Shown piece after piece: positions 27,449 to 36,518 of a DNA stretch of 64,000 nt. The first letter of the stretch is position 1, and each line of letters begins with the position of its first letter. The notes under the pieces are model-generated. The model was not told the DNA's origin and ran no database searches. It saw only the letters and a program-made list of their open reading frames with translations. The stretch is from Candidatus Micrarchaeota archaeon (GTDB lineage Archaea > Micrarchaeota > Micrarchaeia > Micrarchaeales > Micrarchaeaceae), in contig JAGWHI010000002.1 of NCBI GenBank assembly GCA_028866905.1, forward strand, positions 7,219-71,218, written 5' to 3'. Position numbers and translations under genes: made by a program.

Positions 27449-27688
27449 ATGGAAACTCGGGAAACAACTATCCAGATACGGAAGGGCGTGAAGAGGGCAT
27501 TGGATGCAAGGAAACTCTACCCTAGGGAGAGCTATAATGCGATAATAGAGCGGTTGTTATCTGAGGATCATAGGAATGGTAGGCTCTCAAGAAGTACGAT
27601 AAAGAACATAAACCAGTCGCTGGGTGAGATTAGGGCGGGAAAGTATGTGACTTTTGAGGAGGTAAAGAGGAAGGCAGGGCTTAGATGA
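27449..27688 (+). CDS. putative antitoxin (ribbon-helix-helix-like)
   Basis: 79-aa ORF. The N-terminal TTIQIRKGVKRALDARK...YNAIIERLL fits a strand-helix-helix layout. It overlaps the toxin gene by 4 nt. Confidence 0.5.
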   Translation: METRETTIQIRKGVKRALDARKLYPRESYNAIIERLLSEDHRNGRLSRSTIKNINQSLGEIRAGKYVTFEEVKRKAGLR

Positions 27689-27942
27689 GCTATCAAATAA
27701 TCTTCTCGGAATTGGCGGAGAGGAGATTTTATGACCTTAGCAGAGATGCCCAAATCCAGATAGCAAAACGTCTCTCTAAAGCCAAAGAGGATCCAAGACC
27801 ATTCACAAAAGGGCTTACAGGGGTCAGGCATCTTGTTCTTAGGGCAGGAGATTACAGAGTTATAATAGACTTGGATGATAAGAACAAAGTGATAATGGTG
27901 CTCGACATGGGACATAGAAGGGAGATATACGCGGGCCTTTGA
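27685..27942 (+). CDS. RelE/ParE-family type II toxin
   Basis: 85-aa ORF with PFTKGLTGVRHLVLRAGDYRVIIDLDDKNKVIMVLDMGHRREIY, a RelE/ParE-like C-terminal pattern. Low-GC islet. Confidence 0.65.
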   Translation: MSYQIIFSELAERRFYDLSRDAQIQIAKRLSKAKEDPRPFTKGLTGVRHLVLRAGDYRVIIDLDDKNKVIMVLDMGHRREIYAGL

Positions 27943-27944
27943 GT

Positions 27945-28832
27945 TCAGAGCGGCAGTATGTAGAGCAGCACGTTGCCGAAGAGCAGCGATGCCACCGCCC
28001 CTATGAATATCGGGAGCGCGAGCGGCATCGCCTGCTTGTAGACCGGCAGCTTGGCGCGCACGTTCTTGCTTCTCATCTCGCTTATCAGCTCGGGAGTGAC
28101 CAGCCTGTCGAATATCCTGACCTTCCGCTTTATCTGGTCTATAGCCTTCTGCTCCATAAGGTTGAAGGCTATTATGTCGCCCTCGTCGAACTTGTCTACG
28201 TTGACGTAGTCGACCATCACCCTTGTTATCGGCTTCTCGAAGAGCACCGTGGTGACCGACCCTATTAGCATCAGCGCCAGCAGCACCACGGCATACGGGT
28301 TGGCGCCGACGAAGGTCATTAGGAACGCCATCAGCGCGAGGTATGCCGTAGTTATTAGCAGCGCCTTGAAGGCGGTGGGAGCGCCTATCGACTTCATCAT
28401 TGCGCGCCTTGACTGCATTGCTGCCTTCGGGAGGTAATATATCGGGAGTATCACGAGCGCGGCTATGCCGGTCCCTATCAGGACCGACACCACGAACGGC
28501 ATGCCGAACTGGCTGAACGTACCGCCAAGGATGGGCTGTATCTGTATCGGGAGCATCAGCGAAAGCGCCCCTAGCTCTATTATGTCGCCCTCGCCTATCT
28601 GGCCTATCTTGTACACGACGTACCCCAACGACAGCACTACCACGGCTATGAGCAGGCTTACGGCTATCTGCATCACGTCGAGGTATGCCACGGTGAGGAG
28701 AAGTCCGTACGCCAACGTGGCGTAAGCGAACAACGATGGCACGTTCCTCTTGTTGAAGATGTCGAAGAGCATGTAGATTAGCGCCACGACGACTACGCTC
28801 GCTATCCTGATCGTGAACAGGTCCATCTGCAT
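27945..28832 (-). CDS. archaeal class III signal peptidase (PibD/FlaK/EppA-type A24 prepilin peptidase)
   Basis: Polytopic protein with the first catalytic Asp in MLFDIFNKRNVP and the second in IGEGDIIELGAL (GxGD-like). Confidence 0.7.
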   Translation of the reverse strand: MQMDLFTIRIASVVVVALIYMLFDIFNKRNVPSLFAYATLAYGLLLTVAYLDVMQIAVSLLIAVVVLSLGYVVYKIGQIGEGDIIELGALSLMLPIQIQPILGGTFSQFGMPFVVSVLIGTGIAALVILPIYYLPKAAMQSRRAMMKSIGAPTAFKALLITTAYLALMAFLMTFVGANPYAVVLLALMLIGSVTTVLFEKPITRVMVDYVNVDKFDEGDIIAFNLMEQKAIDQIKRKVRIFDRLVTPELISEMRSKNVRAKLPVYKQAMPLALPIFIGAVASLLFGNVLLYILPL

Positions 28833-28860
28833 CAGTTACTGATTCTGAACGTTCGGGTTA

Positions 28861-30342
28861 TTATTCCTTGTGAGGGTCCCCGTTCATGCCATAGCGGACG
28901 GAGCAAAATTCTTTGAATTCCGCCGCGGTGGAGTTGAGGCCGAATCTGTTTATGTAGGATATGAATTGGGATTTGTCCGGCTTCATAGCAAGCCTCTTGA
29001 TCGAATAGATGCTCAGTCTCGAATGGGCCATTACGTCCTTGTTGTTGCGGAAATCGGGACTGTAGAACCTGGCTTTGATGCCCGCATCTTTTGCCATTCT
29101 GTCTATGAATTCGAGTGCGGCAAGCAGCATCTTCGGCCTTCCCAGCAGGTATGGGTGGGCGATTATCTCCTGCCTGCCGAATCCGAGCTTGTCCTCCAAA
29201 TGCAGAAGGAGCGCCTTTACCATTCCGGGATCAGAGAGCAACGTGTATAGGGATATGGGCTTTTTGGTTTGGGGCTCTCCAGGATCCGACATCAGCGTTA
29301 TAAGGCCGTACTCGCTGAACAGCCTTACTGCGCTGACGAACCTCTTGAAAGAGAAGTCGTATGCTGCGCATCCGTCGGTGCCCTTCACCACGGACTCCAA
29401 AAGGCGCAATTTCATCTCTGTCTCCTCGGTGGTGGATATGAACTCCCCTCTTGTCGTTTTGACATGGGATAGGAGGCCTTCGAGATCTGCAGCTGACCGC
29501 TCCGCCTCATCCCACTTTTTTTCAAGGATCAGGCCGGTCAGCTCCTTTGCCTTTGCGTTCACGCCGACTATGATCTCGCCGACCCTTTGCTCGTCGGAGA
29601 TATCTTCCTGCTTTACCCTTTTTGGGACTATAGACCTGACGATTGTCTCCAGCTCCGCCCTGCTAGGCTTTATGCCGTGCCCCCTGAGGAAGCTTTCGAT
29701 CTTATTTGCATCCTGCGATTCGAGCGTGGCCCTGAGCTTCTGCAGGGACACCCCACCCCCAGGGTTGGCGAGTCTCTCCCTGTTATCTACGAAGTTTATC
29801 TTAACGCCCTGCCGATCCATGACGGGCTTTATGGCCCTAAGGCCGTCCGCAAGCCTTTTGGTATTGTTGACAAAGAATGAAGGGTTATCCGCAAGCAGCT
29901 GGTTTGGGATGCCTAGCTCCTTGAACGCTGCCGCAAGCTCGAACTTTTCATCCGGGGACTTGGCTAGCATCGACATGGTTATCCTCGCCACATTTCCGCT
30001 GACGGTGCCGCCGGTGAAACTGATCACCCCCATCTTCTGCAGCGCGAAGATGTTTTCTACGGCCAACGACAGGGAGATGGTGCTGTCAGATAGGCTGGTA
30101 ACGTTCTCGGACAGCACTGCCGATATCACACCGTCCTTTATCTCTGACTTTAATTCATGGTCCCTGAACAGCTTTGACATCCCCTTTAGGCCCCACATCA
30201 TTTCGTCCAGCTCCCTAGCCAGGGAGAGCGATGATTTCTCGTCGTTAGAGAGTATCGATTTGACCAGGGAATCGGCCTTCCGCTTGACGCTGTTGATGTA
30301 TGCCTCTTCGTCCTGGGATTTCTGCGGTGCGTTCTTCTGCAT
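28861..30342 (-). CDS. hypothetical soluble helical protein, internally duplicated; paralogue of 30346..31815
   Basis: 493 aa. It shares module order and blocks with its neighbour, e.g. LGFGRQEIIAHPYLLGRPKMLLAALEFIDRMAKDAGIKARFY versus GMGRDDFRANPGALGNPTPLLCALLFIEEKARQQGKPLRFY. Confidence 0.6.
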   Translation of the reverse strand: MQKNAPQKSQDEEAYINSVKRKADSLVKSILSNDEKSSLSLARELDEMMWGLKGMSKLFRDHELKSEIKDGVISAVLSENVTSLSDSTISLSLAVENIFALQKMGVISFTGGTVSGNVARITMSMLAKSPDEKFELAAAFKELGIPNQLLADNPSFFVNNTKRLADGLRAIKPVMDRQGVKINFVDNRERLANPGGGVSLQKLRATLESQDANKIESFLRGHGIKPSRAELETIVRSIVPKRVKQEDISDEQRVGEIIVGVNAKAKELTGLILEKKWDEAERSAADLEGLLSHVKTTRGEFISTTEETEMKLRLLESVVKGTDGCAAYDFSFKRFVSAVRLFSEYGLITLMSDPGEPQTKKPISLYTLLSDPGMVKALLLHLEDKLGFGRQEIIAHPYLLGRPKMLLAALEFIDRMAKDAGIKARFYSPDFRNNKDVMAHSRLSIYSIKRLAMKPDKSQFISYINRFGLNSTAAEFKEFCSVRYGMNGDPHKE

Positions 30343-30345
30343 TGG

Positions 30346-31815
30346 CTATCCCTCCCTCTTCTTCACCAGCTTCGACTTTATCCCCATCCTCGCGAGGAGA
30401 TCCCGCTTGAAAGCCTCGTACTCCTGTTCTGAGCACTTTATCCCGTAGCCCTGCAGGTAGTCCACAAGCCCGATGCTCTTCGTCTGCGCCGAGTTGGAAT
30501 GTATGGTGCTCAGGCTCAGCTTTACGTGCTGGTCAACCCTTAGGTTCATGCCTAACACCTTGCTGTCGTAGAACCTTAGCGGTTTGCCCTGCTGCCTGGC
30601 CTTTTCCTCTATGAACAGCAGGGCGCAGAGGAGCGGTGTCGGGTTGCCAAGGGCGCCGGGATTCGCCCTGAAATCGTCGCGGCCCATGCCTGCGACCCTG
30701 CCCAGGCACTCCACGAGGAGGCGCTTGGAAACCGGGTTGTCGGAAAGGTGCACGCTGGATATCCTCTTCGCAGCGTCGCCGTTCTTCGGCTCCGACCTGA
30801 GGTCGACTATGCCGTAGGACACCAGCAGCTCCATATTGGAGACTATGATCCCCAGGCTTGTACCCTTTGGCGACACTTCTACGTTGCTTGCTGCTGAGCT
30901 TATGATATGCTCCCTTATGCGGTCCCATTCCATAGTGTGCTCGGAACGGCGGTGGTGCAGCATAAGCGTGTCGAGCTCCTCGGCCAGCTTTGCTGCCTTG
31001 GGCCATTCCCTCTTCAGCAGGTGGCCTATGACGGCCTCGGATTTCTCCCTCAGTTGGAGGTTGAGGTTTTCGGCATACGAGCGGCTGTTCCGGTCGATAT
31101 CCGCGGTCCTTGGCTTTCTCTGGATGTAAACGGAATCGATCTCGTCCCTTGTTAGCTTTATCCCGAAAGAGCCGGCATACCTTATGATCGCCGCGTGGTC
31201 CCTTTCGTGGTACATCGTGTGCAGCTTCGATAGGCTCATCCTGCTGCCTGGGTTGTTCCTCAGCTCCTCTTGCGCAGCGGAATAGAACCGCAGCTTTACC
31301 CCTGCGCTGTCCGCCTTCCTCTTCACCAGCCCTAGGAAATCGGGTGCGTTTCCGGGCCAGCATATCGCAGTCGGCCTGTCCCGTATGTAGTCCATGCCTA
31401 AGCCCAGGCCCGTGATCGCCGAGCGCAGCCTCTCCTTCCTATCGGGATCCCCGACCAGCATGTAGACCTTTATCTTATCAGGGACATCCAGCCCATCGCG
31501 GGAGATGCCTATTAGGCCCATGTCATTGAAATAGAAGATGTTCGAGACCACAGTGCCTATTGTGAATATCTTGGTAGAAAGGTCGTCTGCGAGGCGGGAT
31601 CCAAGGAGCCGGTCCGCTATCTGCACCCGCAGCTCGTAGTTCTTTTTTTCGTCGCGTTTTGCGGTATTTCCGGACAGGCCATAGGCACCGTCAAGCTCAG
31701 CCGCAAGGCTCGTCGCCTTGCCGCGCTCGTTGTTGAAAATAAGCCCGCACAGCGCCTGTACCTTTTCGGCCTGCCTGCCTGCGGAGTCTGCAATGGTGGA
31801 CTTCTGCCTGCCCAT
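30346..31815 (-). CDS. hypothetical soluble helical protein, internally duplicated; paralogue of 28861..30342
   Basis: 489 aa. Each half carries a ...NP....G.P..L....F......G.KLRFY....L..N......LS block followed by G-I-K-x-[ST]-x-x-E. There is a 3-nt gap to the downstream paralogue. Confidence 0.6.
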   Translation of the reverse strand: MGRQKSTIADSAGRQAEKVQALCGLIFNNERGKATSLAAELDGAYGLSGNTAKRDEKKNYELRVQIADRLLGSRLADDLSTKIFTIGTVVSNIFYFNDMGLIGISRDGLDVPDKIKVYMLVGDPDRKERLRSAITGLGLGMDYIRDRPTAICWPGNAPDFLGLVKRKADSAGVKLRFYSAAQEELRNNPGSRMSLSKLHTMYHERDHAAIIRYAGSFGIKLTRDEIDSVYIQRKPRTADIDRNSRSYAENLNLQLREKSEAVIGHLLKREWPKAAKLAEELDTLMLHHRRSEHTMEWDRIREHIISSAASNVEVSPKGTSLGIIVSNMELLVSYGIVDLRSEPKNGDAAKRISSVHLSDNPVSKRLLVECLGRVAGMGRDDFRANPGALGNPTPLLCALLFIEEKARQQGKPLRFYDSKVLGMNLRVDQHVKLSLSTIHSNSAQTKSIGLVDYLQGYGIKCSEQEYEAFKRDLLARMGIKSKLVKKREG

Positions 31816-31872
31816 TGGTAATGGGTTATCGCTTCAAGGAATTTAAGGCTATCGCTCTACCGCATAAGATTG

Positions 31873-31922
31873 GAAGGAAAAGAAAGGTAAAGAAAAAGAA
31901 AAAGGAAAGACGCTATGCGTCT
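31873..31922 (-). terminator. hairpin AGACGC-tat-GCGTCT overlapping the stop codon, followed on the minus strand by a long pyrimidine/T-rich tract
   Basis: The minus strand reads GACGCATAGCGTC then TTTCCTTTTTCTTTTTCTTTACCTTTCTTTTCCTTCC. Oligo-T tracts are the usual archaeal termination signal. Confidence 0.45.
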
Positions 31923-32304
31923 ATTCCATGTTCGCGCCGATTATCGACAGGATGAAGCCGATCACGACTATTCCGAAAGCCGTCGATCCTCCGCCTATGC
32001 CGAGAGCGAGCAGCGTTACCGCTCCGCCCATCGTAGCCTTCCTCTTCATCATGTTCATCTTCTCTCCGCCCATGTTTATTCCGGCGAAGCTCATTATGAA
32101 GAGTCCTATCGCTGCGATCGTGGCCAGTCCGAACAGCAACGGCGCTACAGCAGCGCCAGCGGTTCCGCTGACCGGTCCGGTGCTCCACCATAACGACCCC
32201 CAGTGGGAGTACGCCCAGTAGACTGCGTACAGGTAGAAGAGGCTTCCTATGAATGTCAGAAGGAAGGTCCCCCAATTTGCTGATTTCTTTGCCATGTAAA
32301 TCAC
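31921..32304 (-). CDS. small four-helix membrane protein, unknown function
   Basis: 127 aa with four hydrophobic segments separated by short Gly-rich loops. Confidence 0.5.
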   Translation of the reverse strand: MIYMAKKSANWGTFLLTFIGSLFYLYAVYWAYSHWGSLWWSTGPVSGTAGAAVAPLLFGLATIAAIGLFIMSFAGINMGGEKMNMMKRKATMGGAVTLLALGIGGGSTAFGIVVIGFILSIIGANME

Positions 32305-35789: not shown

Positions 35790-36518
35790 CTAGCTCTTGA
35801 GCTCGATGTAGCCGAGCGCGGTCATCTTGTTGAGCATCTGCTCCACCCTTGGGGCGTTGAGCTTGTACGCCTTGGCGAACTCTATCACGTCTATCGAGCT
35901 GTCGTGCGACTCCAGCCATTCCTGTATCATCACCATCAGCGACTCGTCGGAGTAGGTCTCGAGCTCCTTCAGGCGCTCGTTCAGCTCCTTGTTCTCGGTG
36001 TTCAGCTGCTCCGCCTGCACCGAGAGGTTCTTGTTCGATGCGGAGAGCTCCAGGTTCATGCGCTTTATCTCGCGGTACTCGTTGAACAGCGAGTCGTAGT
36101 TGTTGAACAGCGTGCTGTAGCTCTGTGATATCGAGCCGAGCAGGTCGTCGATTACGGAATCCGCGGTCTGGAATATGTTCGTGTCGTCAACCTTGTAGAG
36201 GTCGCTGAGCAGCGATAGGATCCCGAACAGGTTCTTCAGCACGAACAGGCGGCGCATCCTCACGCTCGTGTCCGGGCCTATCGAATACTTCACTGTCACG
36301 CCGTCCTTTGCGAACTCGTATATGAAGAAGAGGAAGGGCCTGTTCTGTATGTCGTGGCTCTCTATCCTTGCCACGACTGTACGGTCCGGCTCAGCCTTCA
36401 CCCTGAACATCTGAAGGTCGGAGAGCCTCGTGGCTATCTCGTCAAAAGGTGCTAGCGCAGAGCCGCCGATCTTTATCTCCTCAACCTTCGGCTCTATCTG
36501 CGGTACCTCCTCTGCCAC
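35790..36518 (-). CDS. cytoplasmic coiled-coil protein with C-terminal winged-helix-like domain
   Basis: Heptad region NEYREIKRMNLELSASNKNLSVQAEQLNTENKELNERLKELE. The C-terminus IDVIEFAKAYKLNAPRVEQMLNKMTALGYIELK is wHTH-like. A TATA-like GGTATATATTAG lies about 40 nt upstream. Confidence 0.55.
   Translation of the reverse strand: MAEEVPQIEPKVEEIKIGGSALAPFDEIATRLSDLQMFRVKAEPDRTVVARIESHDIQNRPFLFFIYEFAKDGVTVKYSIGPDTSVRMRRLFVLKNLFGILSLLSDLYKVDDTNIFQTADSVIDDLLGSISQSYSTLFNNYDSLFNEYREIKRMNLELSASNKNLSVQAEQLNTENKELNERLKELETYSDESLMVMIQEWLESHDSSIDVIEFAKAYKLNAPRVEQMLNKMTALGYIELKS

Follow-up and report, generated by a model that had tools for sequence, protein, structure and literature searches.

A described setting close to that of the genes reported here is found in 'Ca. 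Mancarchaeum acidiphilum' Mia14, a cultured member of the Micrarchaeota, which has a single FlaK-like prepilin peptidase that is encoded apart from both of its pilus loci and whose genomic islands contain strain-specific hypothetical genes (PMC5498576). Our subject is a pair of adjacent genes, here called A and B, that lie upstream of a prepilin peptidase gene in a 64,000-nucleotide stretch (the window) of the genome of a Candidatus Micrarchaeota archaeon (assembly GCA_028866905.1, contig JAGWHI010000002.1; 886 kb in 31 contigs). The locus is similar in kind to the variable regions of the Mia14 type in having lineage-restricted unannotated genes within a rearranged region, a toxin-antitoxin pair, secretion or pilus genes nearby and a genome of about 0.9 Mb, which is a likeness of general features. 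It differs from them in that A and B have a base composition native to their genome and that at least one related organism shares them, and in a four-fold module architecture that is specific to A and B.

A sequence-only reading of the window had described A and B as soluble, helical-looking tandem paralogues of unknown function, each made of two copies of a module of about 240 residues; the open reading frame (ORF) positions, the strand and the 3-nt spacer between A and B (TAG-cca-ATG) that it gave are exact, and all four of the peptides that it quoted are present in the translations. The two proteins are 27% identical over 468 aa (BLASTP, E=3e-38), which bears out the tandem paralogy, and a second, off-diagonal BLASTP alignment pairs residues 255-476 of A with residues 19-241 of B (E=3e-8), so that the internal repeat is already visible. 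When the N- and C-terminal halves (A_N, A_C, B_N and B_C) were compared with each other by BLAST, five of the six pairs were significant, namely A_N/A_C (1.5e-13), A_N/B_N (4e-19), A_N/B_C (3e-15), A_C/B_N (1.5e-9), and A_C/B_C (1.3e-21), and B_N/B_C gave no direct match. These half-against-half E values, which span 1e-9 to 1e-21, put the four-fold repeat of a module of approximately 245 residues across A and B far beyond chance, and the two-copy architecture of each protein stands with them. No further copy of the module was found elsewhere in the genome.

The family to which A and B belong is very small. An exhaustive HMMER search with a profile of the four modules, against 1.84 billion cluster representatives that stand for about 15 billion proteins, recovered three true members, A, B, and a third protein, P0003, each of them a singleton cluster. 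P0003 is a 504-aa protein with the same two-module layout, encoded on a 2.2 kb metagenomic contig from sample SRR23702711, and it is orthologous to B, to which it aligns in a full-length frame with 32% identity, E=8e-90 and only 7 gaps; a partial peptidase gene that is 70% identical to the window peptidase lies 10 nt to the 3' side of it. Because the frame of P0003 is intact, and because its identity to B is 32% compared with 70% for the adjoining peptidase, A and B are, as judged from these alignments, real genes that are constrained yet fast-evolving. The module was not found in 40 relatives of the same family and order, nor in 400 further genomes of the class (among which 78 belong to the same family), and scans of the genome, metagenome, and viral contig collections with the A/B alignment gave no match. 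Word-indexed searches for homologues recovered just the query, their candidate filter being too coarse for this family. Neither protein matched anything in Pfam, NCBIfam, PADLOC, or PHROGs, no PADLOC-DB component model reached E<=1 with A, B, P0003, the 127-aa membrane protein (mem127) encoded upstream of A, or the peptidase, and sequence searches of the PDB with one protein and with the module profile found only chance matches. A widespread family of known function, the outcome that the earlier description had set against itself, is thus not what was found (three sequences in about 15 billion proteins), and its statement that the pair has no known function is supported.

A maximum-likelihood tree of six modules, two each from A, B, and P0003, separates the N-modules from the C-modules with support of 95/95, and within it B_N pairs with P3_N and B_C with P3_C. 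This N/C split and the pairing of B with P0003 give the order of events as module duplication, followed by tandem gene duplication, followed by speciation. The G+C content at third codon positions (GC3) is 0.757 for A and 0.700 for B, at the 43rd and 21st percentiles of the genome, respectively, and the base composition of both genes is native to it.

Hydropathy and sequence properties reveal no transmembrane-grade hydrophobic segment and no signal peptide in A or B, in both of which the maximum 19-residue Kyte-Doolittle mean is 1.3-1.5, and structure prediction makes both proteins helical for the most part, each module having a single short two-stranded element, which agrees with their description as soluble and helical-looking. 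An AlphaFold2 model of a single module, built from six sequences, has a mean predicted local distance difference test score (pLDDT) of 82 and a predicted template modeling score (pTM) of 0.78, and it opens with a long helical hairpin at the N-terminus, continues through several shorter helices and two short strands (…KLRFY… and …SLS…), and closes with three helices. The AlphaFold2 model of full-length A is weaker (pLDDT 74.6, pTM 0.47), which leaves the mutual placement of the two modules undefined. Only K14, L37, G96, L118, L128, P147, G171, and G218 are invariant in all six modules, and invariants that are so few and mostly structural argue against an enzyme. No sub-repeat was detected inside the module, since hhalign comparisons among its thirds gave a probability below 1%.

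Our preferred explanation, which we hold tentatively and at a little under an even chance, is that A and B form a non-catalytic cytoplasmic scaffold or adaptor, likely as an A-B hetero-oligomer, that is functionally independent of the peptidase. An ancestral module of approximately 245 residues was doubled within one gene, and the two-module gene was then doubled in tandem, with both copies diverging rapidly and with the pair natively maintained but restricted to one lineage. Each module would pass from a long N-terminal helical hairpin through a helical core to one short β-hairpin, and the A-B hetero-oligomer would present four equivalent modules to a partner. A and B would be expressed from a promoter of their own, with B translationally coupled to A, and a lineage-specific insertion plus inversion in an otherwise conserved neighborhood composed of leucyl-tRNA synthetase (LeuRS) and the series superoxide dismutase (SOD)-peptidase-mem237 would have put A and B upstream of the peptidase, which would keep its own promoter independent of A and B. 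Several points weigh against this proposal. The structure models were built on only 3-6 sequences, and the term scaffold is argued from a lack of catalytic motifs. Each time that B is known to occur, it shares its strand with the peptidase at a distance of 10-34 nt, and no terminator intervenes, so that read-through co-transcription and a functional tie are possible. Finally, only about 1.4 kb separates the locus in the window genome from the end of a cluster that resembles type IV secretion systems.

Table 1. Positions in the window of genes A and B, their modules, the adjoining genes, and candidate expression signals.
Feature	Position	Strand	Description
Gene A	30346..31815	(-)	489 aa, pI 9.5, soluble, two modules; from the ORF list and repeat comparison
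Modules of gene A	A_N = 31081-31815; A_C = 30349-31080	(-)	
Gene B	28861..30342	(-)	493 aa, pI 8.9, soluble, two modules; from the ORF list and similarity to A
Modules of gene B	B_N = 29593-30342; B_C = 28864-29592	(-)	
A24 (FlaK/PibD-type) prepilin peptidase, diverged	27945..28832	(-)	295 aa as listed; likely start 28826
Antitoxin (VAPB_antitox/DUF7557) and ParE-toxin pair	27449-27942	(+)	Between SOD and peptidase
127-aa four-helix membrane protein	31921-32304	(-)	Upstream of A
TATA-like box CCTTAAAT	31841..31848	(-)	-33..-26 from the ATG of A (TTAAAT at -31..-26)
Terminator-like hairpin (AGACGCATAGCGTCT) and, after it, a long T/C-rich run	31880..31922	(-)	After the 127-aa gene, separating it from A
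Shine-Dalgarno-like GGGAGG	30351..30356	(-)	8 nt upstream of the ATG of B, within the 3' end of A
DNA block CCTCA-C/T-AAGGAATAATAA-N5-ACGTTCAGAA-N2-AGTA	28837..28875	(-)	B-peptidase junction; kept in the related contig

The peptidase itself is a conserved single-copy housekeeping gene that stands outside the A/B family. Against the Pfam Peptidase_A24 model (PF01478) the window protein scores 18.7 bits, below the cut-off of 26.5 bits; nine of its ten orthologues reach E<=0.01, the best of them 2.2e-6, and no sequence match was found in the PDB. The segments F21-D22-x-x-N25-x-R27-N28-x-P30 and G78-x-x-D81 are invariant in the ten orthologues and hydrophobic segments are evident in the translation, so that the two aspartates and the polytopic membrane character of A24 peptidases are both present. 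The listed ORF starts at MQMDLF... (28824-28832), but all ten orthologues and the related contig begin at the equivalent of its second ATG (MDLF... or MELL...), and the true start is probably 28826. The sequence-only reading placed the peptidase 28 nt after B on the same strand, which is correct for the listed ORF (TAA-28 nt-ATG); a start at 28826 would make the gap 34 nt. The peptidase was found in 40 of 41 related genomes, the window genome included, compared with a single one of the 41, the window genome itself, for A and B.

The gene order in the window is LeuRS(-), SOD(+), antitoxin/ParE(+), peptidase(-), B(-), A(-), 127-aa membrane protein(-), and mem237(+). Ten relatives were examined for the corresponding neighborhood: the peptidase is beside LeuRS in nine, in four of which SOD lies between the two and 3-55 nt upstream of the peptidase; the membrane-protein gene mem237 follows the peptidase in six; and an A/B-like gene is present in none. 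This order differs from that of the window, and an inversion of the peptidase with A and B placed upstream of it is accordingly a rearrangement peculiar to one lineage. The linkage of B to the peptidase is seen in the window genome and in one related contig, that of P0003, and since the two cases share one ancestry they count as a single evolutionary event. We also considered whether diverged versions of A and B might occupy the same slot in the relatives, and rejected this: the slot holds SOD, LeuRS, a GH15-like protein, an unannotated 338-aa ORF, or a Ski2-type helicase, and a permissive hidden Markov model scan found no A/B. The peptidase neighborhood is a variable spot within the family. 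In one relative (G004) a 486-aa GH15-like protein adjoins the peptidase (L028 2932-4392), and in another (G014) the unannotated 338-aa ORF is co-oriented upstream of it (L024 3024-4040).

Across the genome, AT-rich hexamers upstream of well-separated genes show a peak of starts at -36..-28 from the start codon, the pattern that archaeal TATA boxes would give where leaders are short or absent, and this suggests that most transcripts would have very short leaders or none. We infer that CCTTAAAT is a candidate promoter of the A-B unit, from which a leaderless or short-leader transcript would arise, and the GGGAGG inside A is consistent with translation of B from a shared A-B transcript. The stop TAG of A and the ATG of B are in the same frame (30340-30348), but read-through of the TAG to give a four-module A-B fusion was rejected, since many genes here end in TAG (246 out of 673 in a crude set of gene calls); in contig L005 the end of the upstream gene fits no assignable frame, the in-frame junction is without demonstrable conservation, and the arrangement is probably a coincidence. 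In the case of the B-peptidase junction, the AT-rich block listed in Table 1 is kept in the related contig despite the different C-termini of the two B proteins (ending …HKE and …IRNNNVDVQNE). The element AATAATAA is located at 28858-28865, at -39..-32 from the likely peptidase start at 28826, a position that fits the genome-wide AT-box peak. In relatives whose peptidase does not follow SOD closely, AT boxes occur some 30-45 nt upstream of it, while those with a SOD-peptidase gap of 3-17 nt have no such boxes. Because the block is conserved, its position fits the peak, and AT boxes recur in relatives, the peptidase probably has its own promoter, of which the junction block is the candidate. 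No terminator-like site was seen between B and the peptidase, so that read-through from A-B may occur; the co-transcription with the peptidase that the sequence-only reading gave is putative.

The most serious alternative to a peptidase-independent scaffold gives A and B an accessory role in the cytoplasm for a pilus or secretion system, for instance as a regulator, as a partner of the peptidase, or as an adaptor or chaperone of class III signal-peptide substrates; read-through from the promoter of A would then express them together with the peptidase. We consider this unlikely, though it deserves real weight, given that the same-strand placement 10-34 nt from the peptidase holds in both known occurrences, that nothing resembling a terminator intervenes, and that a secretion-like cluster, whose ATPase matches HerA/TraG P-loop domains, starts at approximately 33.2 kb in the window with its end approximately 1.4 kb from the A/B locus. 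However, the peptidase occurs in 40 of the 41 related genomes but A and B in the window genome only, the peptidase of the relatives follows SOD or directly adjoins LeuRS, the two linkages are of one ancestry and not independent, the peptidase has a conserved candidate promoter of its own, and the secretion-like cluster does not adjoin the peptidase in the four relatives for which about 20-30 kb of flanking sequence was read. The linkage from which the sequence-only reading had drawn a role in pilin or surface-structure biogenesis is real in the window genome and in one close relative, but the role does not follow from it, and the linkage was not found beyond these two, none of the ten relatives examined having A and B and the arrangement being essentially unique to the lineage.

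A comparison with known folds bears on a further alternative, that A and B are nucleic acid-binding helical-repeat proteins in the style of mTERF, TAL effector, or helix-hairpin-helix proteins, with turns of the form L-G-h-G/K...P touching the DNA or RNA backbone. As read from the sequence, the A/B motif L-G-x-G-R-x-x-I-x-x-x-P-x-x-L resembles helix-turn motifs found in such families, the isoelectric points (pI) are basic (8.7-9.5), and the PDB entries at the head of the Foldseek list for the module model are MTERF4, MTERF3, and TAL effectors. None of these is significant, however: no match was better than E=1.1, with probability <=0.28, a template modeling (TM) score of about 0.3, and a root-mean-square deviation above 10 Å, and the MTERF3 and MTERF4 matches in particular had E values of 1.1-3.3 and TM scores of 0.28-0.31. 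Foldseek searches of the module against BFVD (best E=0.44) and of the full-length A model against the PDB (E>=0.7) fared no better. The mTERF proteins (MTERF3, 3m66; MTERF4, 4fzv and 7odr) are similar to A and B in being mostly helical and in following a Leu/Gly turn with a helix and a proline, as in the A/B turn L-G-x-G-x-x-x-I-x-x-x-P-x-x-L, but the A/B motif occurs once per 245-aa module and not as a tandem repeat of approximately 30 aa, and the A/B module includes a β-hairpin. The A/B motif would also be about four residues shorter than the mTERF spacing. The Pfam mTERF model (PF02536, curated threshold 23.1 bits) matched neither A nor B at E<=0.1, and with the threshold relaxed to E<=10 it matched none of the six modules and no part of the genome translated in six frames. 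The resemblance to mTERF repeats, which the sequence-only reading had itself offered with low confidence, is thus echoed at noise level, fails every test applied, including that for a sub-repeat of approximately 30 aa within the module, and is not supported. The basic pI was likewise rejected as a sign of nucleic acid binding, since the crude proteome median of the genome is similarly basic (8.49), and with no periodic sub-repeat in the module we regard this alternative as distinctly unlikely.

The other matches of the exhaustive search were eukaryotic proteins with tandem EF-hand pairs (P0004-P0012), which match PF13499 at up to 100 bits. Their alignment to the A/B profile is limited to positions ~162-235, at 10-26 bits per repeat, and the summed scores are inflated by repetition. 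Two of them, P0004 (6935 aa) and P0005 (4684 aa), are giant proteins of 20-30 tandem EF-hand-pair units of approximately 105 residues (LGIxLTxxE...D.DGK). The similarity lies in the last ~70 residues of the module, where h-G-[IV]-K-x...S-L...h-G-[IL]-K-x-[ST]-x-x-E aligns with the EF-hand pair, and hhalign of the C-terminal third of the module against EF-hand units gave a probability of 88.7-93.9% over 67-68 columns, a value that is inflated because the units had been pre-selected by the module's own profile. In contrast to EF-hands, the aligned A/B segments NNPGSRMSLSKL, ANPGGGVSLQKL, VDQHVKLSLSTI, and VMAHSRLSIYSI are without the acidic ligands and the glycine at position 6, the D-x-D-x-D-G...E calcium ligands are missing, and the EF-hand helix corresponds to a predicted strand plus loop. 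No Pfam EF-hand model matches A, B, or the six modules, and Foldseek returned no EF-hand structure, so the likeness of the C-terminal third to EF-hands appears to be a remote resemblance and is unproven.

It is very unlikely, in our judgment, that A and B are variable genomic-island cargo, for example an unrecognized defense or conflict system that might act with the adjoining ParE/antitoxin pair. The region is indeed rearranged relative to that of the relatives, A and B are lineage-specific and fast-evolving, and the ParE/VapB-type pair immediately beside the peptidase has deviant GC3 values (0.54 for the antitoxin and 0.45 for the toxin, at the 2nd-5th genome percentile) and is absent from that position in 10 of 10 relatives, such that the pair looks like a recent insertion. 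A and B, however, are native in composition, unlike that pair; they match nothing in PADLOC or PHROGs, show no enzymatic effector domain, and have no relatives in viral contigs, and around the rearranged segment only short, chance-level matches were found as border repeats and no integrase was found. The 127-aa membrane protein is a family-level gene that is separate from the novelty of A and B. Two paralogues of it (38% identity) are encoded a few kb from the peptidase in the relative G020 (L032 5372-5728 and 7505-7864).

Least likely of all is that A and B are translocated effectors of the neighboring type IV secretion-like machine, delivered into or onto the host cell of a host-dependent archaeon, a role that could be read into their extreme lineage restriction, their divergence far faster than that of the adjoining housekeeping gene (32% compared with 70% identity), the tandem and internal duplication of a helical module with no signal peptide or enzymatic motif, the basic C-terminal tail of A (...KSKLVKKREG), and the distance of about 1.4 kb to the end of the secretion cluster in the window genome, but for which no result here speaks directly in favor of translocation. 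If it were true, no candidate substrates of a type IV secretion-like system in archaea would precede A and B. Between an 800-aa membrane protein and a VirB4/HerA-like ATPase, window positions 35790-36518 encode a 242-aa coiled-coil protein with weak, sub-threshold matches to ZapB, GvpT-like, and EAP30/Vps36 (C-terminal winged-helix-like) models.

With a tiny distribution and no assignable function, the practical weight of A and B is limited. The family nevertheless falls outside everything described, with three sequences, no profile match, and no structural neighbor for a reasonably confident model, and it provides a clean case, from the reduced genome of a symbiont, of an internally duplicated family that is either young or evolving very fast, possibly with a new fold. 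Of greater use is a negative finding on the prepilin peptidase of this archaeal family: it is a stand-alone housekeeping gene that is usually found beside LeuRS and often just after SOD, and the adjacency of A and B to it in the window is therefore no ground for annotating them as pilus-biogenesis factors.

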